Assembly (NCBI GenBank): GCA_029287195.1
Contig: JARFRN010000149.1
Location: forward strand, 1-56,103
Origin: Acidimicrobiia bacterium
GTDB lineage: Bacteria; Actinomycetota; Acidimicrobiia; Spongiisociales; UBA5794
Direction: 5' to 3'
Length of the DNA: 56,103 bases
A program made the translations under genes and the position numbers. A model generated the notes under the pieces. The model saw nothing but the letters and a program-made list of their open reading frames with translations. It had not been told where the DNA came from and did no database searches. This document shows positions 30,373-56,103 of the stretch, piece by piece (position 1 is the stretch's first letter; each line of letters begins with the position of its first letter).

Positions 30373-30927
30373 ATGGACGTTCGGGCTTGTGGGGGCACAA
30401 TGCTGGTCATCGTTGCCTTGCTTGCAACCGCTTGCTCGGAGGGCAGTTCAGAGCGGCCGGTGCACACAGCGGCCGCGGCAACCACGGAGACCGACATGAG
30501 ACTCACTTCTTCGGCGTTTAGCCATGAGACCCCGATTCCGACTCGCTACACGTGTGACGGTGCTGACGTCTCCCCTCCCCTGCAGCTGAGCGATCTGCCC
30601 ACAGATACCGTTTCGCTGGCATTGGTAATGGACGATCCCGATGCCCCGGCCGGAGTGTGGGATCACTGGGTGGAGTACGACATCGAACCGCGCGAGGCGA
30701 TTTCGGAAGCAGTTACAGACCTGGGCACTGCGGGCAAGAACTCGTGGGATCGCACCGGATACGGCGGCCCGTGCCCTCCGAGCGGTACCCATCGATACTT
30801 CTTCACCGTCTATGCGCTCGACACGGAGTTGGGACTCGATCCCGGTGCCGACAAGGCTTCAGTCCTAGATGCGCTCGAGGGTCACGTTCTCGATCAAGCG
30901 ACACTCATGGGTACCTACAGCCGGTGA
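30373..30927 (+). CDS. YbhB/YbcL (PEBP) family lipoprotein
   Basis: Lipobox LATAC; YTCDGADVSPPL, DDPDAP, WDHW and YGGPCPPSGTHRY. Start uncertain. Confidence 0.9.
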   Translation: MDVRACGGTMLVIVALLATACSEGSSERPVHTAAAATTETDMRLTSSAFSHETPIPTRYTCDGADVSPPLQLSDLPTDTVSLALVMDDPDAPAGVWDHWVEYDIEPREAISEAVTDLGTAGKNSWDRTGYGGPCPPSGTHRYFFTVYALDTELGLDPGADKASVLDALEGHVLDQATLMGTYSR

Positions 30928-31004
30928 CGCACCCCGGGCAGACTGTTCGTAGCATCGCAGGCCACGGGATCGTAAGATCCCGCCGACATCCCCTTGAAGG
31001 CATC

Positions 31005-32549
31005 GTGACCACCACACAAGCCATCCCGCCAATCCACTTTGCTCCTGCTCGCGGGGCGCGCATCGCCTACCAGGTCTTTGGCGATGGGCCAGCAACCATC
31101 GTTGCGATTCCACCAACTGCACAGAACATCGAAATCGCCTGGGAGCGACCCGAGATTCGTCGCATGTTCGAGCGGTTTGCGTCGTTCTCCCGTTACCTCC
31201 ACTTCGACAAACGGGGTACCGGAGCCTCCGATAGGCGCAGCCACATCCCCGGTATCGATGAGAGGGTCGAAGACCTCCGTGCGGTCATGGATCATGCCGA
31301 AATCGAACGCGCTCATCTGTTCGTCGCCTCCGAGGGGGGCCCGATGGCAATCCTGTTTGCGGCCACATATCCCGAACGCGCCGAAAGTCTGACTCTGTGG
31401 GGCTCCGGAGCGTCGATGTTGCCGCGCAAGCTGAGCGAGGAGGAGGTTGCAGAGCAAAGGGAACGGCACGAACGATACGCCCGAGTGTGGGGCACGCCGG
31501 AATCGCCGGTTGTCGACGGCTTCGCCCCCTCTCTTGCAGGTGATCAGTCGTTCCGATCATGGCATCAGCGCTACGAACGCCAGGCGGCCACCACCGACTC
31601 GTTGCTCGAACTCCTCGAGCTGACCTTTGAGATGGATGTTCGCGAGGTACTACCGAAGCTCGACCTCCCGACACTCGTATTCCATCGAACCGATGATCGG
31701 ATAGTTCCCGTTGCCTTTGGCCGGGAACTAGCTGCCAAGATTCCCGGCGCCCGACTCATCGAACTCGAGGGCAACGATCACTTCCCCTACGCCGGTGATC
31801 TCGACACCTGGATGACAGAGATGGAGCGATTCCTGACCGGCGATGTCAAGCTGCGGCCCTCCCAACCGAGTCACAGCCCGATGGTGCGCATTACCACCCT
31901 CGGTCGTTTCGCGGTAGAGGTTGACGGCAGCGAGGTCCCTCGCTCGGCATGGGGTTCCCGGCGGGCACGCCAGCTGTGTAAACGCCTGGTTGCAGCCCGC
32001 GGCTGGCCGGTGACCCGGGATGAGCTCTTCGAGTTGCTGTGGCCGGACGAGTTCGACCGCCGCAAGCTGGGGGCACGCTTGTCGGTGCAGCTTTCTGCGG
32101 TTCGCCGGGTGCTCGGCGGCGGAGTCATCGCCGACCGGCAGACGGTCAGCCTCAACCTGGATGAGGTGACAACCGACCTGGAGGTATTCCACAACGCTCG
32201 TGATGACCGCACGATCGTCGCTGCCTACACAGGCGACTTCTTGCCCGACGATGTATACGAAGACTGGAGTGCAGCTACTCGCAACGAAGTGCGTTCTGTC
32301 TTCCTCTTGGCAGCACGTCGATTGGCAGAGCAAGAAATGCAGAACGAGCGGTTCGGCCATGCGATCGACCTCGGGCGCCGGCTGCTCGATGTTGATCGTT
32401 ATGACGAATCGGCCCACCAGCTCGTGGTTACCGCCCTGCTGGAGAGCGGCGAACCCGGCGAGGCCAAGCGGGCTCATCAGGCGTGGGCGGACGCTCTGGA
32501 CGAACTAGACATCGAGATACCGCCACTCAGCCGGTTACGACGATCGTAA
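31005..32549 (+). CDS. Alpha/beta hydrolase fused to a SARP-type wHTH + BTAD activator domain
   Basis: IAYQVFGDGP, FDKRGTGASDR, ASEGG and LEGNDH; C-terminal LGRFAV, VTRDELFELLWP, YTGDFLPDDVYEDW and DRYDESAHQLV. Confidence 0.85.
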   Translation: MTTTQAIPPIHFAPARGARIAYQVFGDGPATIVAIPPTAQNIEIAWERPEIRRMFERFASFSRYLHFDKRGTGASDRRSHIPGIDERVEDLRAVMDHAEIERAHLFVASEGGPMAILFAATYPERAESLTLWGSGASMLPRKLSEEEVAEQRERHERYARVWGTPESPVVDGFAPSLAGDQSFRSWHQRYERQAATTDSLLELLELTFEMDVREVLPKLDLPTLVFHRTDDRIVPVAFGRELAAKIPGARLIELEGNDHFPYAGDLDTWMTEMERFLTGDVKLRPSQPSHSPMVRITTLGRFAVEVDGSEVPRSAWGSRRARQLCKRLVAARGWPVTRDELFELLWPDEFDRRKLGARLSVQLSAVRRVLGGGVIADRQTVSLNLDEVTTDLEVFHNARDDRTIVAAYTGDFLPDDVYEDWSAATRNEVRSVFLLAARRLAEQEMQNERFGHAIDLGRRLLDVDRYDESAHQLVVTALLESGEPGEAKRAHQAWADALDELDIEIPPLSRLRRS

Positions 32550-33120: not shown

Positions 33121-33642
33121 ATGCAAAGGAACCGACTGATCATTGCAGCTCTGCTCGGCACGCTGGCTGCAACCGCCTGTGCCGGCGACAGCCTGCCCCC
33201 AACAGACGAACCGATCGTGGTCACCGCCGTCGACTACGGGTTCGAGGGTCTGCCCGAGAAAGTCAGAGCGGGGACCACCCTGGCCCTGCAGAACGACAGC
33301 ATGGTCGAGGTCCACGAATTGGTGGCGATCCGCCTCCCCGATGATGAGACTCGCCCCGTCGACGAGTTGGTCCAGCTCCCACCGGAGCAACTGGCCTCCT
33401 TCTTTCCGGGCGTGGCGACCGTTGTCATAGCGCCCCCGGGCGAATCGGGCTTTGCAGTCGAGGGCACCGGGGTCCTTTCCGAACCAGGCAGATACGCAGT
33501 GATCTGCGTCATCCCCACCGGCGCCGATCCGGCCGCGTATCTCGAGGCCGCGGCCGAGGCCGAAGGAGGTCCGCCGGAGGTGGCCGGCGGACCGCCCCAC
33601 ATAGCAATGGGCATGTACGGCGAGGTCACGGTCGTCGAGTAA
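33121..33642 (+). CDS. Cupredoxin-like lipoprotein
   Basis: AAGGAG RBS; lipobox AATAC; VDYGF, N..(V)HEL, PGRYAVIC and H...GM..EVTV. Confidence 0.7.
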   Translation: MQRNRLIIAALLGTLAATACAGDSLPPTDEPIVVTAVDYGFEGLPEKVRAGTTLALQNDSMVEVHELVAIRLPDDETRPVDELVQLPPEQLASFFPGVATVVIAPPGESGFAVEGTGVLSEPGRYAVICVIPTGADPAAYLEAAAEAEGGPPEVAGGPPHIAMGMYGEVTVVE

Positions 33643-33797: not shown

Positions 33798-34220
33798 ATG
33801 ATTTCGATTACCGACCGTCAGCGCCGCTACTTCTCCTATGCCAACGACGTGCTGCTCTTCATCGTCGTACTCAACCTCTTCGTGGAGTATGTGGATGCAG
33901 TCATCATCGACTCATTCACAATATCGATCTTCACCGCGATCGTCCTCAAGATCATCCTCGACCTCCTCCTGGCGTTCGAGCACAGGGTGTCTGGCTTCTT
34001 CAAAGAACACAACCGGCCTCTGTTCGGAGCGCTGGCTGTGTGGCTGATCCTCTTCTCGAGCAAGTTCGTGATCCTCGAAATCATCGACATCATCTTCGGC
34101 GAGCACGTCGAGCTCGGCGGGTTCCTCTCGGTGCTGGCTTTGGTGGCAACGATGATGATTGCCCGGGCGGTGTTCCAGCGCATCTATCAGTCACTGGGGG
34201 ACACTCCGGCGGAGGCATAG
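33798..34220 (+). CDS. Hypothetical integral membrane protein (~4 TM)
   Basis: Hydrophobic 140-aa ORF with TAGAGT -10-like box 7 nt before the ATG. Confidence 0.8.
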   Translation: MISITDRQRRYFSYANDVLLFIVVLNLFVEYVDAVIIDSFTISIFTAIVLKIILDLLLAFEHRVSGFFKEHNRPLFGALAVWLILFSSKFVILEIIDIIFGEHVELGGFLSVLALVATMMIARAVFQRIYQSLGDTPAEA

Positions 34221-34319
34221 CTCCACTCGACCTCGACGCCCAATAGAGTGGGCCACGAGCTCAGAGAACTCGAATGGACGTTTGGCGACAAACGGTGCAA
34301 TAAGACACAGTCTCGGCCC

Positions 34320-34794
34320 TGGCTGAGAATGATCCTGCTATCTCGTTGTCCACGCGCAGAGATCTGCTTGGTAGCCGGACCTATCCCGTCTCGACCGTGT
34401 GGGCGATACTCGCGGTCCAGCGGCTCTTGAAGAAGCAGACTGAGAATGGTTCCTGGAGAGGACCCAGGCTGAGGCGACCGGTCTATCCAGCGAATCATTC
34501 CGACCTCCTCGCAACCTTCAAGCAGGTCCCCCCACTCGTTGAGCGATACAAGTTGACGAAAGCGTCGCCCGAGTTGCTGCTAGCGGCCGAGTGGCTGTTG
34601 GGTTTCCAGACCGACGAAGGCGACATTCGCGGTTCATCGGCAACCAGTACGCCACCTACTACACAGGGGCCGCCGACGGCATGTGGCACATAGTCAATGA
34701 CGGATCGGCCGAACGCCCGACGCCGACGAACCAGGAGCGTCGCGCATGGCCGACGCTCCGCGCATGCCGGGTGTTGAAGTCGCTCGCCGAGTAG
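34320..34794 (+). pseudogene. Remnant of a QW-repeat (prenyltransferase/squalene-oxidase repeat) alpha/alpha-barrel protein
   Basis: LLKKQTENGSW, AAEWLLGFQTDEGDIRG, frameshift near 34633, then (F)IGNQYATYYTGA joined to a C-terminal-like DGMW...WPTLRACRVLK*. Too short for a full barrel; no clear start. Confidence 0.6.
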
Positions 34795-34853
34795 GGCGCA
34801 CCGTCACTGATTTTTCGGGGGCTGACAGCTCTCACAGTTCGTGCCAGCATGGC

Positions 34854-36635
34854 ATGGTGACCGAAGTCATAGGCGCGTTCATCCTCGGCGTGGTTTCCGC
34901 CTCGTCGCTCGGGCTCGGTGCCGCCACCGCCAGGATATGGAAGCCCACCAATTTCATTCTTGGCCTGCTGACGGCATTCGGCGCAGGAGCGCTGCTCTCG
35001 GCGGTGACCATCGACGTGGTTGCGCCCTCGGTTGAACGTGGAGAGACCGGCTGGCTTGCCATCGGTGCAGTAATCGGTGGCTTGGCATTCGAAGGTCTCA
35101 ATCGAACTGTCAATGCTCGAGGCGGATTCCTGCGCAAAGCCTCTACTTCGATCACATTCTTGCGCGACCGGGAGCAGCGGCGAATCCGAGAGGTGCTCGA
35201 CGATCTGGAACGCATCGACGTGTTCGATGGCCTCCCCGATCGCGAACTGGACGAGATCGCCCGCGCCTTCCGCTCCGAACGCATCGCCACCGGGGAGACG
35301 TTGTTCCGTCGCGGCGACGCCTGTGAGCACATCAACGTTCTCGCCGAGGGTGAGGTCACGTTGGCTACGCTGGAGGGTGACGTTCACCTCCATCCCCATC
35401 AGGCCTTCGGCTACCTGGCGTTCGTAAGCGGCACTGCTCACAGTTCGACGGCCACCGCACGGACCGAAGCCGAAGTGCTCCGTCTCAGCCGGAACCGCCT
35501 CCGCAGTGTCCTCGGAACCTGCCCTGAGCTGGCCGAACGGCTGAGAACCAAAGCGGCCGACGACGAACTCGTCGCATACGTCCGCAGCCACCATCCCGAA
35601 ATCGCCGAAACTCACATCACGTCCTGGATGGAAGCACTGCGCGGCGAGGGTATCGAACAGATGCCGCAATTGCTCGACCTCACGTCCACAACACCGCGAG
35701 AGCAATTAGCCGATCATCTGGCCGATGTAGAGGTCTTTCGCAAGCTGTCATCCGACCAGCTGGCGCAGGTAGTGGACCTGATGTTCCCGGAGGAGCACGA
35801 GAGCGGGTACGTGTTCTTCCGGCCCGGCGAGCCTTCGGACCGCTTGTATGTGCTGGCGGACGGAGACGTCGCCCTGATCGACGCGACCGGCGAGTCCGAT
35901 GTCAGCATCCTGCTTCAAGAAGGGGAGGAATTCGGGTTGCTGTCGTTCGTCACCGGCTTGCGCCACGCGGCGACGGCAATCGCCCAGAGCCCCAGCGAGG
36001 CTTGGGTCCTGCTCCGCTCCCACCTCGATGAGATGGTACGCAACGATCCCCAGCTGCGCGCTGCGGTCATCGACTTCCTCGAAAGCCCCCGGATTGCCCG
36101 CTACTTCAAGGAAGATCAAGGTCTGGACGCCGAGCAAGCCGGTAGCATCAAGCGGCGGGCTATCAGTGCGGTGCGGCGGGGCCGACTGGCCCCCACCGTG
36201 AGCGCCAAGCTGACTCAGGGTGCTCCGATTGCCATCTGGCTCGGTCTGCTCCTCGACGGGATTCCGGAGTCGCTGGTCATCGGCGCGACCGCCGGTGCAG
36301 TACGGGTCTCCTTCATCGCCGGCATCTTCCTTTCCAACTACCCGGAGGCCTTATCCAGTTCGGTGGGCATGCGGGAGCAAGAGTTCCGTTGGAAACACAT
36401 CGCGATGCTGTGGGGAAGCGTCATCTTGGTCACCGGTGTGGGTGCCGCCATCGGCAGCGTGGTATTCCAGAGCGCCCCTACTGAGGCTTTCGCCATCGTG
36501 GCAGGCATGGCGGCCGGGGCAATGCTCACAGTCATCACTCAGACGATGATGCCTGAGGCCCTCCACCGCTCAGGCGGCTTTGTAGGCCTGGCCGCCCTCG
36601 CCGGATTCCTGATCACAACCCTGGTCGGCGCTTGA
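34854..36635 (+). CDS. ZIP (ZupT/GufA-like) metal transporter with two internal cNMP-binding-like domains
   Basis: TM1-3 (SLGLGA, AFGAGALLSAV), two CAP_ED-like domains (GETLFRRGD; GYVFFRPGEPSDRLYV), then LLDGIPES, FLSNYPEALSSS and AAGAMLTVITQTMMPEA. Confidence 0.88.
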   Translation: MVTEVIGAFILGVVSASSLGLGAATARIWKPTNFILGLLTAFGAGALLSAVTIDVVAPSVERGETGWLAIGAVIGGLAFEGLNRTVNARGGFLRKASTSITFLRDREQRRIREVLDDLERIDVFDGLPDRELDEIARAFRSERIATGETLFRRGDACEHINVLAEGEVTLATLEGDVHLHPHQAFGYLAFVSGTAHSSTATARTEAEVLRLSRNRLRSVLGTCPELAERLRTKAADDELVAYVRSHHPEIAETHITSWMEALRGEGIEQMPQLLDLTSTTPREQLADHLADVEVFRKLSSDQLAQVVDLMFPEEHESGYVFFRPGEPSDRLYVLADGDVALIDATGESDVSILLQEGEEFGLLSFVTGLRHAATAIAQSPSEAWVLLRSHLDEMVRNDPQLRAAVIDFLESPRIARYFKEDQGLDAEQAGSIKRRAISAVRRGRLAPTVSAKLTQGAPIAIWLGLLLDGIPESLVIGATAGAVRVSFIAGIFLSNYPEALSSSVGMREQEFRWKHIAMLWGSVILVTGVGAAIGSVVFQSAPTEAFAIVAGMAAGAMLTVITQTMMPEALHRSGGFVGLAALAGFLITTLVGA

Positions 36636-36649
36636 CGACCCATACCGGA

Positions 36650-37627
36650 CTAATCCCCGACGGCAATGACGGTCTTGCCGCTCGCATGACCCCCCGAGAT
36701 GTACCTCATCGCCTCGGCAACCTCCGCCAGGGGGTAAGTCCGGTCGATGATGGGTCTCAGCTCGCCGGCGTCGATGAACGCGATCAGATCCACCATGTCC
36801 TGTGACTTGACCTGGGAGTAGAAGGGGCGACCCTGCGCCTTGACGAACATCGAGATGATGCCTGCCTGCATCATCCGCCCCACTGCGCCGAACCAGCGTC
36901 CCTTCGATCGAGCACTGTTGCTGATCAGCACTCCGCCTTCGGCAACTGAGTTGCGGACTTCCGCCAGCGGCCGGTTGGCCACATTGTCGAGAATCAGGTC
37001 GTAGCGCGCCTCGCCCTTCGTGAAGTCGTCCTGCGTGTAGTCGATCACGTGGTCGGCCCCGAGCTGCTTTGCCAACTCGACGTTGCTCGGTCCGCACACC
37101 GCGGTGACCTCGGCTCCCAGCGCCTTAGCGATCTGGACGGCGTACATGCCGACACCACCGGTGGCGCCGTTTATCAGCACCTTGTCTCCCGCTTCGACCT
37201 TGCCGGCGTCACGAATCCCCCGCAGCGCAGTAACACCGGAGACCGGAATGGCGACGGCCTCCTCGGCACTGAGCCCGCCGGGCTTGTGCACCAGCTTGTC
37301 GGTGGGCACCACAGAGTATTCAGCGCACGAGCCACCATTCGTCTCACCGAAGACCTCGTCACCGGTCTGGAAGCCGCGGACCTCCTTGCCGACAGCTTCA
37401 ACCCTGCCGGCGAAGTCGAACCCGGGAATCCGCTTCTTCGGCCTTCGCAATCCCGCACCCAGCCGCATGATGTAGGGCTCCCCCTTCATCAGCATCAGAT
37501 CGCCGATGTGCAGGGCCGCCTTCTCCACCCGAACGAGCACTTCGTCGTCTTTCGGGACCGGCTTCTCGATGTCCCTGAGTTCCAGCACATCGGGGGATCC
37601 GTACTCATCCTGCACCACCGCTTTCAT
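36650..37627 (-). CDS. MDR family NAD(P)-dependent oxidoreductase
   Basis: YGSPDVL, PGFDFAG, VLINGATGGVG, LGADHVIDY and IIDRTYPL. Confidence 0.92.
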   Translation of the reverse strand: MKAVVQDEYGSPDVLELRDIEKPVPKDDEVLVRVEKAALHIGDLMLMKGEPYIMRLGAGLRRPKKRIPGFDFAGRVEAVGKEVRGFQTGDEVFGETNGGSCAEYSVVPTDKLVHKPGGLSAEEAVAIPVSGVTALRGIRDAGKVEAGDKVLINGATGGVGMYAVQIAKALGAEVTAVCGPSNVELAKQLGADHVIDYTQDDFTKGEARYDLILDNVANRPLAEVRNSVAEGGVLISNSARSKGRWFGAVGRMMQAGIISMFVKAQGRPFYSQVKSQDMVDLIAFIDAGELRPIIDRTYPLAEVAEAMRYISGGHASGKTVIAVGD

Positions 37628-48540: not shown

Positions 48541-48689
48541 GTACAAGAGCCGCCAATCTCCCCGACCACGTGTGGCGATCGGCACAGCTCGAGGTGGTTG
48601 CGCCCTAGCCGGCCGGCGAAGCGGGCCGGCTCCTGTACGAGCCCATCCCGATCGCTAGTGTTGCGCCAGGCTACACGTTGGGACGGATC

Positions 48690-49199
48690 GTGCTTTCAGA
48701 GAACGCAATGAATGTTCTGCGAACCACGTCGCTGTTCGCCGGGTTCAATGAAGAACAACTGGAGATGGTGCCCAAGGTCGGGCGGGAGCGCAACTTCGAG
48801 TCCGGGGAGATGATCGTGGAGGAGGGATCGACGGGAGCCCGATCGCTCTGGCTGGTGCTGGAGGGCGAGGTCGACATCGTCGTTGCCGGAGAGGTTCTTC
48901 GCTCCCAGGGGCCGGGCACCCACTTCGGCGAGCTTGCGCTGCTGGCTGAAGCGCCGCGGTCGGCCGATGTTGTCGCCCGCACCGAGACGGTCGCCCTCGA
49001 GCTATCTCGGAGCCACTTACACGGGCTCATAAGCGCCAACCCGCAGGTGGCCCTCGACATGCTCGCCGAGTTGGCAACCAGGCTGCGGGACGTTACTGAA
49101 GCGCTCGCAGAGAAGACCGCCGTCGAATCGGCCCATGCGGCTCCATCCGATCCCTACTACCTCGGCCCCATCGAGTACGGGGTCGGCGGACGGGACTAG
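48690..49199 (+). CDS. Stand-alone cyclic nucleotide-binding domain protein
   Basis: LFAGF, GEMIVEEG, VLEGEV and canonical cassette FGELALLAEAPRSADV; no HTH. Start is 48678, 48690 or 48708. Confidence 0.9.
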   Translation: MLSENAMNVLRTTSLFAGFNEEQLEMVPKVGRERNFESGEMIVEEGSTGARSLWLVLEGEVDIVVAGEVLRSQGPGTHFGELALLAEAPRSADVVARTETVALELSRSHLHGLISANPQVALDMLAELATRLRDVTEALAEKTAVESAHAAPSDPYYLGPIEYGVGGRD

Positions 49200-51844
49200 T
49201 CGCCGCCGGAATCTGCCAGCGCCAGCGCAACCGCGTCGGTCACGGACATGGTCCGGCCTTCCGCATAGACTGCTCCCAACTCACCGTCGAGCAGGCCGAG
49301 GCTGTCGGGATCGATGTGTGACGTTGCACTGATTCCTACTCTGACCAGATCTACGCCGGTCTCGTCGCGCAGGCCGGTCATGGCTCCGGCGAGCCGCGCA
49401 CCCAGTACCGAGTCACCCCGTTCAATTGCCAGGTAGGCAAAAGCGGCGAGATACATGACGACGGCGGAGACATCGGAGATGTCGAACAACCGCATGCCCC
49501 GCTGGAGATGGCGTCTTGCACTCTCGTACTCCCCGAGCCTGACCAGCACCTCACCTTGGGTATAGAGGGCCCAGCCCAATCCAAATCGATCATCGAGCCG
49601 CTCGAACGCGGCAACACTCTCGTCGAAGCAATGCCGTGCCTCGACCAATTCCCCAGACGCGGCCCAGGCATCGCCCAGGCCCCACCTCGCAGCCGCCATG
49701 CCCGCCTCATCGCCGAGATCGGCAAACATCGCGTGCGCCTCACCGAAGAGCGCCCGAGCGCGGGCGGCATCACCCTCGTAGTTGCGGGCAAACGCCAGGT
49801 TGTACAAGGCATAGGCGATCGGTCCCGGTTCACCGAGGATCCGGAACAAGCCGAGAGCCTCCTCGTAGAACTCCCGGGCCGACTCCATGTCACCGGACCA
49901 ATAGGCAACGCCACCCGCTGCTTCCAAAGCTTTCGCCCGTGACGCGATCGAGGCCCCTTCGATCAGGAGAAGGTTCTGGAGGAGGCCCCCGGCTGAGAAC
50001 AGCAGCCCCCGCATGTGATAGAAGCGCCACAGCGACGCCGCCATCTCGAAGGCCATGTCGATTTCGTCGTGCTCCACGGCCCACTGCTGCGCTTTTCGCA
50101 GGTTGTCGTGGTCGGCCGACAGTTTGCTCAGCCATTCACTCGCTCCCGAACCGGTCAGGTTGGGTTCGGCGGCTGCACTGAGGCGGGCATAGGCCCGCGC
50201 ATGACGTTCGGCGGTTTCCGCCATCCGGCCGGATACTGCGAGCTTTCGTTCAGCGAACTGCCGAACCACCTCGAGCATCCGAAATCGGACGTCCCCGGCA
50301 GCCTCAGATCGAACGACGAGGCTGTGCTCGACCAGAGTTTCCAACCCTTGGAGCGGCTCGTTGCCGAGCTCGGGACCGGCAACAGCGGAGATCTGTTCCA
50401 GCCCCGCTCCCCCTGCAAATACGGCCATCGCTGCCAGCAATGTCTGCGCCGGCTCCGGCAGCAGGTCGTAGCTCCACGCGATCACATGGTCCATGGTCCG
50501 CTGCCGGGCGGGCAGATCCCGGCTGCCCTCGCCTGCCATCACGTGCTCGAGATTCTCGAGGATGGCTCGAGGAGACAGAGTTCTGACCCGTGATGCGGCC
50601 AGTTCGATGGCAAGCGGCAACCCGTCGAGTCGCGCGACCAGCTCGGCCACAATCTGAGCTGCCCGATCGTCCAGTACAAAGGATGGGCGCACCGACTTGG
50701 CCCGATCGGCAAAGAGGGCAACAGAGTCGACTTCCATCAGCGCCGCCGCAGAGGCTGCTCCGAGATCAGGCGTGGCCAGCGGCGGGATCGGCATCTCCTG
50801 CTCACCGGCCAACCGCAGCGGAGTGCGGGAAGTGGCGATGATCTTCGTGTCGATCGATGCCTGCAGGATTCGTAGTGCAATCGGTGCCGCCGCAATCAGG
50901 TGCTCGAAATTGTCCAACACCAGCAGGAGGTTGCGTCGAGCAACGTAGGCAAGCAGGTGATCCTCCGTTGGAGTGGATGCCTGCGCAACGTGATCAGAGA
51001 ACGATTCGAGGATTTTGGCGGGAACTTCTTCCGGATCGGCGATGCCCGCCAGAGCAACGAAGTGCGCCCCGTCGGCGAAGTCGGTGGAGACCATACGCGC
51101 AAGCTCGAGCGCAAGACGAGACTTGCCGGTGCCTCCCGGGCCGGTCAGCGTGAGGAGCCGGGAGCCGGCCAGCAGCGACTGCGCCTGCCGCACCTCGTCC
51201 CGGCGTCCAACAAAGGAACTGAGCTGGGTCGGCAGATTGTCGCGCACGGCACTGAGCGAGCGCGGAGCCGCCTGATTGTCGGGCAACCCGGCGATCACCA
51301 GCCGGAAAAGCCGCACCGGAGTGTCGAGATCTCTGAGCACATGCTCGCCCAAGTCACGGGCGACGACTCCCGGCGGCAAGGAGTGCTCGGCCAGGCTCAT
51401 CGTGGCCGCAGATGCCAGAACCTGCCCGCCGTGCCCTGCGGCCGAGATGCGCGCGGCTCGATGCACCTCGATGCCTACGTAGTCATCTCCACCGACGGCA
51501 CCGATGCCGGTGTGCAGCCCCATCCTGACTTGCACCTTCTCTCCACCGGCGAATTCGTGATCGGCCAACGCCCGCTGCGCTTCCACTGCCGCCGCTACCG
51601 CGGCTGGGGCCGCCGCGAACACGGCGAAGAACGAATCCCCCTCTGTTCGAATCGCTATTCCACCGGTGTCTTCGATGGCCTTGCGTACCAGTTCGTTGTG
51701 AGCCTCGATGATGGCCCGAGAGTTGCCGCCCGCTCGCTGTAGGAGACGAGTCGACCCCTCGATGTCGGTGAACAGGAACGTAACGGTTCCGGTCGGAAGG
51801 TTCGTTGTGGCGTCGATGGCGAACTCCCCCAGCGATGCGCTCAT
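49196..51844 (-). CDS. Class III adenylate/guanylate cyclase + STAND (NB-ARC-like) NTPase + TPR protein
   Basis: LPTGTVTFLFTDIEGST, EGDSFF, RMGLHTG, HRAARI, LGEHVLRD; FVGR, GPGGTGKS, LLVLDNFEHL, LDGLPLAIELAA and WSYDLL; helical repeats at the C-terminus. Confidence 0.93.
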   Translation of the reverse strand: MSASLGEFAIDATTNLPTGTVTFLFTDIEGSTRLLQRAGGNSRAIIEAHNELVRKAIEDTGGIAIRTEGDSFFAVFAAAPAAVAAAVEAQRALADHEFAGGEKVQVRMGLHTGIGAVGGDDYVGIEVHRAARISAAGHGGQVLASAATMSLAEHSLPPGVVARDLGEHVLRDLDTPVRLFRLVIAGLPDNQAAPRSLSAVRDNLPTQLSSFVGRRDEVRQAQSLLAGSRLLTLTGPGGTGKSRLALELARMVSTDFADGAHFVALAGIADPEEVPAKILESFSDHVAQASTPTEDHLLAYVARRNLLLVLDNFEHLIAAAPIALRILQASIDTKIIATSRTPLRLAGEQEMPIPPLATPDLGAASAAALMEVDSVALFADRAKSVRPSFVLDDRAAQIVAELVARLDGLPLAIELAASRVRTLSPRAILENLEHVMAGEGSRDLPARQRTMDHVIAWSYDLLPEPAQTLLAAMAVFAGGAGLEQISAVAGPELGNEPLQGLETLVEHSLVVRSEAAGDVRFRMLEVVRQFAERKLAVSGRMAETAERHARAYARLSAAAEPNLTGSGASEWLSKLSADHDNLRKAQQWAVEHDEIDMAFEMAASLWRFYHMRGLLFSAGGLLQNLLLIEGASIASRAKALEAAGGVAYWSGDMESAREFYEEALGLFRILGEPGPIAYALYNLAFARNYEGDAARARALFGEAHAMFADLGDEAGMAAARWGLGDAWAASGELVEARHCFDESVAAFERLDDRFGLGWALYTQGEVLVRLGEYESARRHLQRGMRLFDISDVSAVVMYLAAFAYLAIERGDSVLGARLAGAMTGLRDETGVDLVRVGISATSHIDPDSLGLLDGELGAVYAEGRTMSVTDAVALALADSGGD

Positions 51845-51881
51845 ACAATAGGCAGGCTACGCCGAGCACCCGGAGAACTCT

Positions 51882-53537
51882 TTGCACCCAGTAATCCTCG
51901 CCGTTGACGATGATCATCTGGTCCTTCGTGCACTCGAACGTGACCTCAGGGAGAGTTTCGGGCAGAGGTACCGTGTTGTCACGGCTGCAACCGGAAGTGA
52001 CGCGCTCGATGCCCTTGCCGAGCTGAAGGCTCGGGGCGCCGGCGTGGCACTTCTCATTGCAGACCAGCGGATGCCGCATATGACCGGCATCGAGTTTCTG
52101 GCCGCAGCGGTGGAGATGGAGTCGAACGCCAAGAGAGTCTTGCTCACGGCCTACGCAGACACAGGGGTTGCGATCGAGGCGATCAACTCGATCAACCTCG
52201 ACCACTATCTGCTGAAACCCTGGGATCCGCCCGAAGAGGGCCTGATTCCCGTACTGGAGGGCTTGCTAGACGACTGGCAAGCAGGCGCCGAGGTTTCGTA
52301 CGAGGGCATCCGGGTCGCCGGAACCATGTGGTCGGCGCAATCCCATGAGGTCAAGGAGTTCCTGGCCCGCAACCGCATCCCATACCGATGGCTCGATATC
52401 GAGCGAGACCGAGCAGCCCGGGCTCTCGTCGAACGGAAAGCCGCGCAACGTCCGCTCCCAATCGTGTTCCTTCCCGACGGGGAGGTTATTGCAGGACCAA
52501 CGCCTCGCCTACTTGCCGAGAGGGCCGGGCTACAGACTGAGGCGGCAGACACCACGTATGACCTGATAATCATCGGCGCCGGACCGGCAGGACTTGCCGC
52601 CGCGGTCAACGCCTCTGCCGAGGGAATGCACACACTGCTCGTCGAAAAATCGGCCACCGGCGGCCAGGCGGGCACTAGTTCCCGGATCGAGAACTACCTT
52701 GGCTTTCCTTCCGGTATCAGCGGCAGCGAGTTGGCGGAACGAGCGACGGTCCAGGCACGACGTCTCGGTACCGAGATCCTGCTGGCCCGTGAAGTCGTCT
52801 CGCTTCGGGTAGGCGACACGTACCGGTACGTACAACTCGATGATGGTACGGAACTCGCCGCAAAGACGGTCCTCATCGCCACCGGGGTGTCGGTTCGAGA
52901 ACTCGAAGCTCCGGGGGTTGCCAGACTCGGCGGAGCCGGGATCTACTACGGCGCTGCCTTGACCGAAGCCGCCAATTACGTCGACCGCCCGGTTGTCATC
53001 GTCGGCGGTGCCAATTCCGCCGGTCAGGCGGCGATTCTCTATGCGCGCCACGCCGGCGTTGTGTCCCTGGTGGCCCGGGCGCGGACTCTGGAGCAAGGCA
53101 TGTCCCGCTATCTCGTCGACCAGATCAAGCACGTTCCGAACATCGAAGTGAGGCTCCGGACGGAGGTCGTCGCGGCCCACGGGACGGATCGGTTGGAGGC
53201 AGTATCGGTAGTCGACAAGGATCGCAACACCGTGGAGAGACTTCCGGCTGCGGCGATGGCCATCTTCATCGGTGCTCGCCCCCACACGGAGTTTGCGGCA
53301 GCCACAGTAGAGCGCAGCGGAGCAGGTTCGATCCTGACCGGACTCGATCTGATCCGTGATGGCCGACGACCGAGCGGGTGGCCGCTCAAGCGAGACCCAC
53401 TCCACCTCGAGACGAGCGTTCCCGGTATCTTCGCCGCAGGAGATGTCCGCTTCGGATCCCAAGCGCGCGTCGGCTCTGCTGTCGGATCAGGAGGTGTCGC
53501 GGTTGGCCTGATTCGGGAGTACCTGAAGACGGTCTAG
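51882..53537 (+). CDS. REC domain + glutaredoxin-like linker + thioredoxin-reductase-like FAD oxidoreductase
   Basis: VDDD, ADQRMP, LTAY and KPW; GAGPAG, GGQAGTSSRIENYLGFP, GGANSAGQAA and TSVPGIFAAGDVR. TTG start uncertain. Confidence 0.92.
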   Translation: MHPVILAVDDDHLVLRALERDLRESFGQRYRVVTAATGSDALDALAELKARGAGVALLIADQRMPHMTGIEFLAAAVEMESNAKRVLLTAYADTGVAIEAINSINLDHYLLKPWDPPEEGLIPVLEGLLDDWQAGAEVSYEGIRVAGTMWSAQSHEVKEFLARNRIPYRWLDIERDRAARALVERKAAQRPLPIVFLPDGEVIAGPTPRLLAERAGLQTEAADTTYDLIIIGAGPAGLAAAVNASAEGMHTLLVEKSATGGQAGTSSRIENYLGFPSGISGSELAERATVQARRLGTEILLAREVVSLRVGDTYRYVQLDDGTELAAKTVLIATGVSVRELEAPGVARLGGAGIYYGAALTEAANYVDRPVVIVGGANSAGQAAILYARHAGVVSLVARARTLEQGMSRYLVDQIKHVPNIEVRLRTEVVAAHGTDRLEAVSVVDKDRNTVERLPAAAMAIFIGARPHTEFAAATVERSGAGSILTGLDLIRDGRRPSGWPLKRDPLHLETSVPGIFAAGDVRFGSQARVGSAVGSGGVAVGLIREYLKTV

Positions 53538-53593
53538 GAGATTCGCGCACAGTGCCGCCGCACACACCGACGGTCGGTTGTCGCGCCTCCGCG

Positions 53594-55015
53594 CTATGGA
53601 ACCGCACCGTCGGGTTCGGGGTTGCTTGGCCGGCACGGCAAGGTGACCCTGAAGGCGGTGCGGCCGGGTTCGGACTCGACCGAGATGTCCCCTCCATGGC
53701 GATTCACAACGATCCCGTAGGTGATGTCTAGACCGAGGCCGGTTCCGCTGCCCGGCGGCTTTGTCGTGAAGAAGGCATCGAAGACCCGGCCCACCACGTC
53801 TGCGGGGATGCCCGGTCCGTTGTCCTCGACTGCAACGGTCACGGCATTGTCCGAGGGGATGACACGTAGAAGTATCACCGGGTTGGGCACCGCTGCCTCG
53901 AGCAGTGCATCAGCGGCGTTGTCAATGAGGTTCGTCCATACCTGATTCAGTTCCGCTGCGTAGGCCTGGATGGATTGTGGTTGCCCCTGGTAGTCGCGTC
54001 GCACCTCGATGCTTCCCAGTTTGTGTTTGAGGATGAGCAGCGTGTTGTCGAGCCCCTCTCTCACGTCGACCTCTTGGACCTCGGCCTGGTCCAAGTAGGA
54101 ATATGACTTCAAAGCGCCCACAATCGCCGAGAGTCGCTCTGCCCCTTCTTCGATCTCCCTGACGAGCGATGATGTATCCGACATGGAGCAGAACGCTTCT
54201 ATGGCCAACATCGCATCTTCGGCTCTCAGACCGGCCAGGGCCGCTTCGAGGTCGGCCGGGGCAATCCCTGCATCCGCCAGCATCGCTGCGCGGCTCCAGG
54301 GTTCGCTGACACCCATCCGGCCGATCAACGTTTCGAACTCGGTCTCACGGTCTGCGCGTTCGAGAGCACCGAGCGGCTCGGGACGTTGCCGGGCGGACTC
54401 CAATAGTGCGTCGACCCGGGCCCTGGCTCCCGGCTCGAGGCCGGCGCCTCGCAGATCACCCATCCGCCCCGCGAAAGCTTCCATTGTGCGGGCCAGCTGT
54501 GAGGATCCACGGCGCACTGCGGCCGCCGGATTGTTCATCTCGTGGGCCAGTCCGGCAGTCAGAGTCCCGATCTGCGCCATCCGCTCCGACTGCCGCAGAC
54601 TCGACTCGGTTTCCCTCCATCGAGACAGCAGGACACCGAACAGGGCCCGCGCTGCAGTGGCCGAGGTTTGCAGAAGTTCGTCCATTTGTTGCTTCGGGAT
54701 GGTCACAAATCTCGAGTCGACGCGTGCCCGCACCGTTGCCATTCTTGGAGCAGCGTCGAGCAGTGCCATCTCCCCGATGATTTCGCCTTGCGTGCGCACT
54801 GCCAGCAAGAGCTCCCGGGGTCCGGTGGTCTTTACCACCTCGACCTCGCCGCTGATTATGACGCATGCTCGATCGCCCTCATCGCCCTCACGAAAAACGA
54901 TCGAGCCTGCGGAAGTCTCCTCCTCGTAGGCCCCGGCCGCCAGGAGTTCTAGATCCTGGTCCGACAGGTCTGCCAACAGCGGAATCGCCCGCAACGCATC
55001 TCGCATCACTCTCAC
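53594..55015 (-). CDS. Cytoplasmic histidine kinase with an N-terminal cNMP-binding domain
   Basis: GEMALLDAAPRMAT; H-box LAHEMNNP, ELNQVWTNLIDNA, DNGPGIP, FFTTK and GTGLGL; GTGA overlap with the upstream gene. Confidence 0.94.
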   Translation of the reverse strand: MRVMRDALRAIPLLADLSDQDLELLAAGAYEEETSAGSIVFREGDEGDRACVIISGEVEVVKTTGPRELLLAVRTQGEIIGEMALLDAAPRMATVRARVDSRFVTIPKQQMDELLQTSATAARALFGVLLSRWRETESSLRQSERMAQIGTLTAGLAHEMNNPAAAVRRGSSQLARTMEAFAGRMGDLRGAGLEPGARARVDALLESARQRPEPLGALERADRETEFETLIGRMGVSEPWSRAAMLADAGIAPADLEAALAGLRAEDAMLAIEAFCSMSDTSSLVREIEEGAERLSAIVGALKSYSYLDQAEVQEVDVREGLDNTLLILKHKLGSIEVRRDYQGQPQSIQAYAAELNQVWTNLIDNAADALLEAAVPNPVILLRVIPSDNAVTVAVEDNGPGIPADVVGRVFDAFFTTKPPGSGTGLGLDITYGIVVNRHGGDISVESEPGRTAFRVTLPCRPSNPEPDGAVP

Positions 55016-56103
55016 ACCGACTCGAGATATTTGTGAATCATCGAGATGGCAACAGAACCCTGTCCTACCGCCGACGCGACGCGCCGCACCACCCCTTCAC
55101 GTACATCCCCCGCGGCAAAGATTCCCGGCACACTCGTCTCTTGCATGTAGGGGTCCCGATCGAGCTTCCAGGCAGGTCGCTTCCCTTTGGTGAAGATGTC
55201 GGGACCCGTCAGGATGAAACCGCGGTCATCCGTCTCGACCAGTCCCTTCACAAAGCTCGAGTGTGGAACGGCACCAACAAAGATGAAGATCGCCGAAGCG
55301 TCTCGCTCGGTTTCGTCACCCGTCGCTTCGTTGCGCAGCTTTATCTTCTCGACAATGGATTCGCCGGCGACCTCGATCACTCGAGTGTTCACCAGAACCT
55401 CGATGTTGCCGGTTGAGTTGATCTGATCGACCAGGTACTGGGACATCTTGGCCTCGAGCGAACCGCCCCGAGCTATCAAGGTCACATTCGCAGCGTGTTT
55501 GCTGAACATGATCGCCGCCTGGCCGGCGGAATTGGCGGCCCCAATCACATAGACGTGGCCTCCCGCATACGTTGCAGCCTCGCTGGGTGCAGCTCCGTAG
55601 TAGACGCCGGCGCCCTCGAACCGGTCGTATCCGGGAACGTCCAACTTGCGGACCGTCATCCCGCTCGCGATCAGAAGCGCATGACAGCGAAGCTCGGACC
55701 CGTCGGCAAGGGTCACGATCTTGACTGTGTCATCAACGCTGATCGCCGTCACCTCAGCAGCCGTGATCAATTCTGCGCCGAGTCGTGACGCCTGGGCCGC
55801 AGCACGGCGCGCCAGATCACCGCCGCTGACTCCCGTCGGGAATCCCAGATAGTTTTCGATTCGGGCGCTGGTGCCCGCCTGACCACCCGGGGCATCCTTC
55901 TCGAGTAGAGCCACTCGAAGACCCTCGGAGGCCCCGTAAACCGCTCCGGCCAATCCGGCCGGGCCACCGCCGATGATGACGACGTCGTAGAACGGACTAA
56001 CGGCCTCGGTGTGCAGGCCGATCTCTCCGGCCAGGGTGCGGCGATCTGGCTTGACCAGTGGGTCTCGACCTGGAATCAGCACAACCGGAATGGAACCCTC
56101 GGT
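55012..56103 (-). CDS. Second thioredoxin-reductase-like FAD oxidoreductase (5' end beyond the window)
   Basis: Frame open to the window edge (TEGSIPVVLIPG...); GGGPAG, GGQAGTSARIENYLGFP, GVYYGA, GAANSAGQAA and TSVPGIFAAGDVR. Confidence 0.92.
   Translation of the reverse strand, partial: TEGSIPVVLIPGRDPLVKPDRRTLAGEIGLHTEAVSPFYDVVIIGGGPAGLAGAVYGASEGLRVALLEKDAPGGQAGTSARIENYLGFPTGVSGGDLARRAAAQASRLGAELITAAEVTAISVDDTVKIVTLADGSELRCHALLIASGMTVRKLDVPGYDRFEGAGVYYGAAPSEAATYAGGHVYVIGAANSAGQAAIMFSKHAANVTLIARGGSLEAKMSQYLVDQINSTGNIEVLVNTRVIEVAGESIVEKIKLRNEATGDETERDASAIFIFVGAVPHSSFVKGLVETDDRGFILTGPDIFTKGKRPAWKLDRDPYMQETSVPGIFAAGDVREGVVRRVASAVGQGSVAISMIHKYLESV

Follow-up and report, generated by a model that had tools for sequence, protein, structure and literature searches.

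A divergent ZIP-like transporter with two histidine-substituted cyclic nucleotide-binding domains inserted between TM3 and TM4

The stretch of DNA analysed here (hereafter the window) comprises 56,103 nucleotides from an Acidimicrobiia bacterium (contig JARFRN010000149.1, assembly GCA_029287195.1) and contains, at positions 34854-36635, a gene encoding a membrane protein in which the two halves of a ZIP-type transporter, transmembrane segments (TM) 1-3 and 4-8, are separated by two consecutive cyclic nucleotide-binding domains (CNBDs). The locus raises the question of what such domains would sense in the middle of a carrier, and how that could affect transport. We hold with moderate confidence that the protein is an elevator-type importer of divalent cations with a divergent, ZupT/BbZIP-like ZIP fold, clamped by a CNBD tandem that does not read cyclic AMP (cAMP) or cyclic GMP (cGMP) in the canonical way. 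The protein thus combines two known elements, a ZIP carrier and a CNBD switch, and it is real, widespread and unstudied. An earlier, sequence-only reading of the locus knew of no characterised example, and full-text searches for ZIP, ZupT or BbZIP together with cyclic-nucleotide terms found no paper on a ZIP with a CNBD insert, within a coverage outside which approximately 1.7 million PubMed Central articles, most subscription journals and supplements lie.

The open reading frame (ORF) is uninterrupted from 34746 to 36635 (+). Homologues are mostly 592 amino acids long and share the same N-terminus, so that the most likely start is ATG 34854 (593 amino acids) or the next codon, GTG 34857, and the longer form starting at ATG 34746 is unlikely. 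A Pfam scan of the whole protein, which had been proposed as a check, gave a clear match to cNMP_binding (PF00027) in two stretches (99.1 bits, cut-off 27.5), whereas the match to Zip (PF02535) was split into two pieces as expected but scored below the gathering cut-off (26.7 bits, E 3.9e-6, cut-off 35.1). In a six-frame profile search of the window's own genome, the first Zip piece (profile positions 5-88) lay at 34869-35090 and the second (positions 180-320) at 36231-36620; as the two pieces flank the insert, the ZIP profile is broken precisely in the TM3-TM4 loop. This loop is short in BbZIP from Bordetella bronchiseptica and in Escherichia coli ZupT, both prokaryotic GufA-type ZIPs in which it is likewise the cytoplasmic regulatory loop, whereas here it extends to 367 amino acids and includes two folded cNMP_binding domains. 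The sequence-only reading had described the same order of ZIP TM1-3, tandem CNBD insert and TM4-8, and both the split Pfam match and the structure model discussed below agree with it; the peptides it quoted (FGYLAFVSGTAHSST, FGLLSFVTGLRHAAT, DGIPES and SNYPEA) lie where it placed them, and its approximate domain limits are close to ours.

The architecture is shared by a large family. A word-indexed search in which 8000 candidates were scored found 676 proteins at E ≤ 1e-3; among the best 120 of these, most cover 94-100% of the query with identities down to 37%, and about a dozen shorter entries cover 59-88%. Homologues are named in the databases as "cyclic nucleotide-binding domain-containing" or "CRP-like cAMP-binding" proteins, and since these labels name the CNBD alone, the transporter is hidden. 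An exhaustive search of 50% cluster representatives found 199 at E ≤ 1e-30, and the best 150 of these, from which all class counts below are taken, comprise 38 complete tandem-CNBD proteins, 55 complete single-CNBD proteins (about 420-475 amino acids), four with three domains, four without a CNBD, and 49 that are incomplete or of other kinds. Of ten relatives scanned with Pfam, eight matched cNMP_binding and six passed the Zip cut-off (43.6-62 bits), which ties the family as a whole to Zip. The membrane motifs D[GAS]xPE[SAG] in TM4 and [SA]NxPE[ASG] in TM5 recur throughout the family, and a GGFLRK-type motif follows TM3 in 88 of the best 150 representatives, many of the remaining ones being fragments. 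The proteins therefore form a distinct ZIP-like subfamily whose TM3-TM4 loop carries between none and three CNBDs, and this loop appears to serve generally as a place where regulatory modules dock. Some members have much longer inserts (684-930 amino acids; P0201, P0229, P0236, P0243 and P0248), with one to three CNBD matches and further, unassigned sequence. No cytoplasmic motif of the family is better conserved than GGFLRKAST, which is specific to the family when compared with BbZIP and ZupT and is independent of the CNBDs, close GGFLRK variants being present also in the CNBD-less relatives P0235 and P0238 (~350 amino acids); it is a candidate gate, lipid contact or coupling element.

Among species-representative genomes, a gene for a relative is present in at least 398 of the 600 candidate stretches, and 80 loci were kept. 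These come from Acidimicrobiia, Nitriliruptoraceae, Scalindua, many Gammaproteobacteria (Thiomicrorhabdus, Thiohalocapsa, Methylococcales), Alphaproteobacteria, Cyanobacteria, Verrucomicrobiales, Terriglobia/Bryobacterales, Chloroflexota and Pelodictyon, and include isolates and one complete chromosome; among the cultured carriers are Thiomicrorhabdus heinhorstiae HH1, Thiohalocapsa halophila DSM 6210 and Adonisia turfae CCMR0081. A chimeric assembly or a gene in decay is an extremely improbable explanation of the fusion. The protein's own sub-threshold Zip score and the short, low-depth metagenome contigs aligned to the gene could be read in that way, but the same uninterrupted architecture is found in the 676 proteins and 80 loci, the membrane motifs are invariant (53/53 homologues), the frame is open, the structure model is confident, and the junction from TM3 to the first domain (CNBD-A) is bridged by contigs of two public runs (X1 record 1, 34700-35328; X2 record 9, 34700-35298). 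Since the same full-length architecture occurs across many phyla, a chimera, which had been named in advance as a possible refutation, is excluded. At the junction from the second domain (CNBD-B) to TM4, no public-run contig aligned there bridges by ≥31 letters, and the 10 runs listed as carrying the gene include no RNA.

An alignment of 53 full-length homologues with pairwise identity below 75% was used for all residue counts given out of 53, and an AlphaFold2 model built from it had a mean pLDDT of 88.7, a pTM of 0.72 and no segment below 50. The model consists of three helices, a long helix, two beta-roll domains with cassette helices predicted at 187-192 and 362-367, linker helices, and four helical stretches (Table 1), the last of which (543-592) covers two hydrophobic segments taken as TM7 and TM8. 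When the model was compared to 48,161 chains in an exhaustive VIA search, the top match was BbZIP (7z6m_A; Z 24.7, root mean square deviation (rmsd) 2.4 Å, 222/238 residues, 22% identity, model range 3-593), followed by single CNBDs of HCN, CNG, SthK, PKA, PKG, CRP-type regulators, SLC9C1, KCNH and plant K+ channels (Z 13.7-18). The predicted structure, as anticipated, supports both an eight-helix ZIP fold, arranged 3+5 around a cytoplasmic TM3-TM4 loop, and the CNBD folds. The ZIP match came from the VIA search only: the matches listed for the 53-homologue profile against the PDB and for Foldseek with the whole model were all CNBD proteins, with no ZIP among them, and a phmmer search of the C-terminal 148 amino acids against the PDB gave four chance-level matches (best E 0.024), none of them a ZIP.

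The insert itself resembles several known sensor modules. The regulatory subunits of PKA and PKG, which also have two consecutive CNB domains, were its best matches in sequence and in Foldseek; all Foldseek matches listed for the whole model were tandem-CNB proteins, with rmsd values of ~17-20 Å over both domains, meaning that the two domains are arranged unlike those of PKA and PKG. The linker here is ~40 residues longer, and the module is placed inside a membrane protein instead of being attached to a kinase. HCN/CNG channels, MloK1, SthK and the Na+/H+ exchanger SLC9C1 (PDB 8pcz) share with the window protein a CNBD coupled by a helical linker to a gate or carrier (Z 15-18 including the linker helix), and since the VIA alignments to HCN1, HCN4 and CNGA1 begin at residues 96-99, the likeness includes the helix after TM3, which resembles the last C-linker helices of HCN/CNG. 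The CNBDs of these channels and of the exchanger are C-terminal and keep the Glu and Arg of the canonical cassette, whereas the domains studied here are inserted between scaffold and transport domains.

In canonical cAMP/cGMP binding, a cassette Glu contacts the ribose 2'-OH and a cassette Arg the cyclic phosphate; neither residue was found in either domain. In phmmer alignments to PKA RI-alpha, Y187 and L362 fall on the Glu, and H196 and H371 on the Arg, in agreement with the sequence-only reading, which had noted GE changed to GY or GL and His at the Arg position in both cassettes. Both histidines are invariant in an alignment of 14 sequences. Among the 53 homologues, the Arg position is occupied in domain A by His (37), Arg (6), Asn (4), Thr (2), Tyr (2), Ser (1) or Lys (1), and in domain B by His (47), Arg (4), Tyr (1) or Glu (1). 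At the Glu position, domain A mostly has His, Arg, Tyr, Phe or Trp, with Glu outside the eight commonest residues and so present in at most 1/53, and domain B mostly has Gly, Ser, Leu, Ala or Val, with Glu in 2/53. The histidines thus also stood up to the proposed conservation check, as they did in the 75 tandem proteins read from the genome loci plus the window (His in A 50/75, in B 64/75, in both 44/75; Glu in A 0/75, in B 14/75); in the 38 tandem cluster representatives His was found in 15 (A) and 26 (B). The loss of the ribose-binding Glu together with the replacement of Arg by a conserved His leads us to infer that the tandem has given up canonical reading of cAMP or cGMP.

The cassettes do not look like relics. 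The mean frequency of the top residue is 0.61 in cassette A vs 0.50 in its beta-roll, and 0.67 vs 0.51 in B, where nothing else in the insert is as well conserved as the cassette; being the best conserved part of each domain, the cassettes point to a maintained and not a decaying site. The cassette scaffold (F-G ... G ... [ST]-A) and the cassette helix are retained. This retention would fit a tandem that still senses cAMP, cGMP or another cyclic mononucleotide (cNMP), with the His as phosphate ligand, perhaps a weaker or pH-dependent one, making the protein a cNMP-gated ZIP. The closest relatives speak for the same view, as canonical Glu and Arg are both kept in 34 of the 55 complete single-CNBD representatives, and so do the Glu in cassette B at 14 of the genome loci and the 17 cyclase-domain matches in the genome, one of them 13 kb downstream in the window. 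We nevertheless consider it unlikely, because Glu has gone along with Arg in nearly all homologues and cNMP binding is classically abolished when the cassette Arg is lost. In the same genome, four other CNBDs retain both residues, which indicates that the lineage has no general tolerance of the change; two more are otherwise non-canonical, and one further Pfam match did not align to the residue model.

A different possibility, which we regard as somewhat unlikely, is that, like the CNBD-homology domains of KCNH and plant K+ channels, these domains bind no ligand, with a pocket filled by the protein itself and a structural, oligomerising, autoinhibitory or partner-controlled role. Both charged cNMP contacts are gone, and a Tyr-Leu pair that could fill the pocket is conserved 46 residues after each cassette His (Y242 43/53, Y417 49/53). 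The homology domains of KCNH2, KCNH5, AKT1, KAT1 and SKOR, which have the CNBD fold without the cNMP-binding charges, match structurally (Z 13.7-17.3). In KCNH-type domains a short strand following the C-helix occupies the pocket, whereas the Tyr-Leu pair here is predicted to be helical, with no strand; furthermore, the cassette is the best conserved part and its replacement is specifically His, which looks functional, and no conserved partner gene lies nearby. In favour of the ligand-free view, some CRP/FNR members need no ligand and have the cavity filled by their own residues, as part of a published account describes (PMC12937710). The same part of that account states that CooA-like heme binding depends on a cassette region (CRP residues 72-82) being missing (PMC12937710); the cassettes here are full-length and conserved, and a heme sensor of this kind is therefore unlikely. 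Five residues past the Tyr-Leu pair, position 247 is His (36) or Gln (9) and position 422 is Gln (26) or His (21), and W258 is found in 48/53; together with the Tyr-Leu pairs, these positions are candidate lid residues. W258 and Y242 were also considered as equivalents of the capping Trp and Tyr of PKA RI-alpha, but those PKA residues align to non-aromatic positions (about 301 and 234).

Returning to a maintained pocket with a changed specificity, a precedent may be the cAMP-independent PKA R of Trypanosoma, entries of which were among the matches (PDB 6flo, 6hyi, 6hyq and 6h4g) with titles mentioning inosine, guanosine and a Thr-to-Arg back-mutant; going by these titles, it is a CNB pair in which the cassette Arg is replaced and nucleosides are bound. 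For the window protein, we find it an evenly balanced proposal that the cue is a non-canonical ligand at the His pocket, either the transported cation or a non-cyclic nucleotide, nucleoside or anion.

How such a cue could act on transport is suggested by the position of the insert. In BbZIP, according to the portion of the structural study consulted, alpha-4 belongs to Domain I (transport) and alpha-3 and alpha-7 to Domain II (scaffold, also dimerisation), and the cytoplasmic end of alpha-4 moves off alpha-3 when the primary site is emptied (PMC9873690). With TM3 in the scaffold and TM4 in the transport domain, the insert spans the moving joint, connecting the static to the sliding part. A rigid CNBD tandem in place of the TM3-TM4 loop would thereby act as an allosteric clamp that in one conformation keeps TM4 against TM3, preventing the elevator stroke, and in another releases TM4. 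The module probably descends from a canonical cAMP/cGMP-binding insert of the kind still present in single-domain relatives, and another cytosolic cue, bound at the remodelled and strongly conserved pocket, would switch transport. The leading candidates for this cue would be the transported cation itself, as feedback, or a non-cyclic nucleotide, nucleoside or anion.

Several points weigh against this proposal. The Zip score of the window protein is below the Pfam cut-off, and the His is not universal, with Arg, Asn, Tyr, Thr and others at its position in some homologues. The genome is rich in cyclase domains, so that cNMP signalling is available, and His, when protonated, might remain able to bind a cyclic phosphate. 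Neither a conserved neighbour (81 loci) nor a riboswitch (Rfam, upstream) points to a cation, and ligand hardness is a weak predictor of cation class in ZIPs. A more specific version is distinctly improbable in our view, namely that the CNBD now serves to sense the transported cation (or protons) by means of the His at the phosphate site, giving product-feedback gating across the scaffold/transport joint of a non-zinc ZIP (Mn2+, Fe2+, Mg2+ or Ca2+) with an all-oxygen site. Were this true, the protein would be the first ligand-gated ZIP from nature, and the CNBD fold would gain a new class of ligand.

Gating and regulation of ZIPs are still an open question, and the consulted portion of the BbZIP literature discusses merely putative gates (PMC9873690). 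The present family offers a natural ZIP with a folded, ligand-type switch as the connector between scaffold and transport domain, and a comparison of the canonical-cassette versions with the tandem His versions could clarify how switching from the cytoplasmic side works in an elevator carrier. Such a comparison might further turn up a new ligand of the CNBD fold and connect cation uptake with second-messenger signalling across many environmental bacteria (Actinomycetota, Cyanobacteria, sulfur-oxidising and methanotrophic Gammaproteobacteria, anammox Planctomycetota and others).

The transport site was compared to E. coli ZupT in separate, gap-poor MAFFT alignments of the two membrane halves, after a profile comparison of the 53-homologue alignment to ZupT (probability 25%) had been rejected because it placed TM6-7 on ZupT TM1-2, an internal pseudo-repeat. 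The window protein shares with ZupT and BbZIP the eight-helix fold, alignable TM1-3 and TM4-8, and the x-x-x-P-E-x register of TM4 and TM5. In TM4, His-Asn-Phe-Pro-Glu-Gly of ZupT aligns to Asp-Gly-Ile-Pro-Glu-Ser, and in TM5, His-Asn-Ile-Pro-Glu-Gly aligns to Ser-Asn-Tyr-Pro-Glu-Ala. The Pro-Glu pairs are thus present (P471 and P497 are invariant columns), whereas the His-Asn with which both motifs start in GufA/ZupT-type proteins is Asp-Gly and Ser-Asn here. DGIPES and SNYPEA had been described as metal-site motifs, but they are not ordinary ones, as both ZupT histidines are replaced and the TM4 Asn has become Gly. D468, N495, E498, T564 and E568 are found in 53/53 homologues and E472 in 52/53; position 469 is Gly (41), Ala (10) or Ser (2), position 494 is Ser (41) or Ala (12), and in TM2, T52 is found in 44/53 and position 54 is Asp (42) or Glu (6). 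No conserved His or Cys was found across the membrane domain of the 53 homologues, and no conserved acidic residue in TM6, where BbZIP has E240. With the ZupT histidines replaced and no conserved His or Cys, the label "zinc/metal transporter" is an assumption.

The binuclear centre of BbZIP consists of M99, H177, N178, E181, Q207, D208, E211 and E240, with P180 as helix breaker, according to the consulted portion of the study, and its Gln-Asp in TM5 means that a His there is not universal in ZIPs (PMC9873690). By motif register, Asp468 would stand for H177, Gly469 for N178 and Glu472 for E181, and Ser494 for Q207, Asn495 for D208 and Glu498 for E211. One site of oxygen ligands (plus Met) seems to remain, and the second seems to be lost. 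On general coordination chemistry, a predicted site of Asp, Glu, Glu, Asn, Ser/Thr and Met would favour a harder cation (Mn2+, Fe2+, Mg2+ or Ca2+) over Zn2+, and we suggest such a preference only weakly. The His-free, remodelled site bears on the determinants of metal selectivity in ZIPs. The same genome also encodes an ordinary ZIP of another subfamily, with His-containing TM4 and TM5 motifs (contig C138, locus L001 1483-2247 (-), 254 amino acids; two Zip matches in a single frame scoring 91.1 and 34.5 bits, or 118.2 when summed); as it belongs to another subfamily, its hhalign comparison to the 53-homologue alignment (probability 3%) is uninformative.

To trace the origin of the tandem, 121 CNBD segments (53 single, 34 A and 34 B) were placed in a midpoint-rooted FastTree phylogeny. 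The A domains formed one clade (29 A and one B, support 0.525) and the B domains another (30 B and one A, support 0.92), the two being joined in a common clade of 31 + 31 segments (support 0.805), to which canonical single inserts are successive sisters with weak support (0.48-0.70). As A and B are nearest to each other, the simplest explanation is a single change followed by internal duplication, so that the likeness of the two cassettes is inherited; they had been described as altered in parallel, which is probably not the case. The tandem is thus likely to stem from internal duplication of an insert that was losing or had already lost the canonical contacts, within the limits of rooting and support. 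The single-CNBD relatives (e.g. P0150, P0158 and P0168) have the same DG.PES, [SA]N.PE[AS] and GGFLRK motifs and the same insertion point, with one, usually canonical, domain where the window protein belongs to a derived tandem clade; judging from their cassettes, they are likely true cNMP-gated forms.

The features of the gene and of a downstream gene cluster are collected in Table 1.

Table 1. Coordinates of features in the window (residue numbers refer to the 593-residue protein).
Feature	Position	Strand	Basis or detail
Whole gene	34854..36635	+	593 amino acids plus stop; ORF list, translation
TM1-TM3, ZIP fold (residues 1-88)	34854..35117	+	model helices 2-28, 33-61, 65-88; Zip positions 5-88; aligns to ZupT TM1-3
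GGFLRKAST motif, cytoplasmic end of TM3, subfamily hallmark	35121..35147	+	G90, G91, R94, K95 53/53; T98 52/53
Long helix, residues 96-118, TM3 to CNBD-A	35139..35207	+	model helix; resembles last C-linker helices of HCN/CNG channels
CNBD-A, residues 119-232	35208..35549	+	Pfam cNMP_binding; PKA RI-alpha alignment; VIA Z 14-18 vs HCN, CNG, PKA, CRP domains
Cassette A, FGYLAFVSGTAHSST	35406..35450	+	Tyr187 at Glu position, His196 (35439-35441) at Arg position
Helical linker between CNBDs	35550..35723	+	conserved Y242-(L/V)243, H247, W258; model helices 237-246, 252-265
CNBD-B, residues 291-405	35724..36068	+	Pfam; PKA alignment
Cassette B, FGLLSFVTGLRHAAT	35931..35975	+	Leu362 at Glu position, His371 (35964-35966) at Arg position
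Helices after CNBD-B with Y417-(L/F)418, then poorly conserved tether to TM4	36069..36218	+	lowest block pLDDT (65) just before TM4
TM4-TM8, ZIP fold (residues 456-593)	36219..36632	+	Zip positions 180-320; model helices 456-478, 485-508, 513-538, 543-592
TM4 transport-site motif DGIPES	36255..36272	+	aligned ZupT residues H-N-F-P-E-G
TM5 transport-site motif SNYPEA	36333..36350	+	aligned ZupT residues H-N-I-P-E-G
TM7 motif TMMPE	36543..36557	+	T564, E568 53/53; M565 51/53; P567 invariant column of the 53-homologue alignment
Stand-alone CNBD protein, canonical Glu/Arg cassette	48678-49199	+	
Cyclase-STAND NTPase-TPR protein, 882 amino acids	49196-51844	-	
Receiver-glutaredoxin-thioredoxin-reductase-like fusion	51882-53537	+	
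CNBD-histidine-kinase fusion, canonical Glu/Arg cassette	53594-55015	-	
Second thioredoxin-reductase-like gene	55012-56082	-	

The gene appears to stand alone. Its neighbours encode a cupin, two small proteins without Pfam matches (33121-33642 and 33798-34220), a quinone-oxidoreductase-like dehydrogenase on the opposite strand, a protein with two transmembrane segments, an ABC-2 exporter pair and a histidine kinase. No conserved neighbour was found across the 81 loci, a generic ABC ATPase being present in 7 of them. Apart from the gene itself, four clusters were common to more than 7 loci (24, 19, 13 and 8 loci), and the example ORFs of these four, the only members checked, lie antisense over the gene. 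Rfam gave no family reaching its gathering score anywhere in the window and none in 34150-34900 even at E ≤ 1; no sigma-70-like promoter was found in 34100-36900. The gap upstream of the gene (34220-34853, about 630 nucleotides) is unusually long and holds an ORF of 115 amino acids at 34346-34693 (+) without a Pfam match at E ≤ 0.01, which may be a gene remnant. A cluster of cNMP-signalling and redox genes lies 12-20 kb downstream of the gene, at 48678-56082 (Table 1), and a gene at 30657-32549 encodes an unusual hydrolase-regulator fusion of 630 amino acids, combining an alpha/beta-hydrolase with a winged-helix domain (Trans_reg_C, weak) and a BTAD transcriptional-activator domain.

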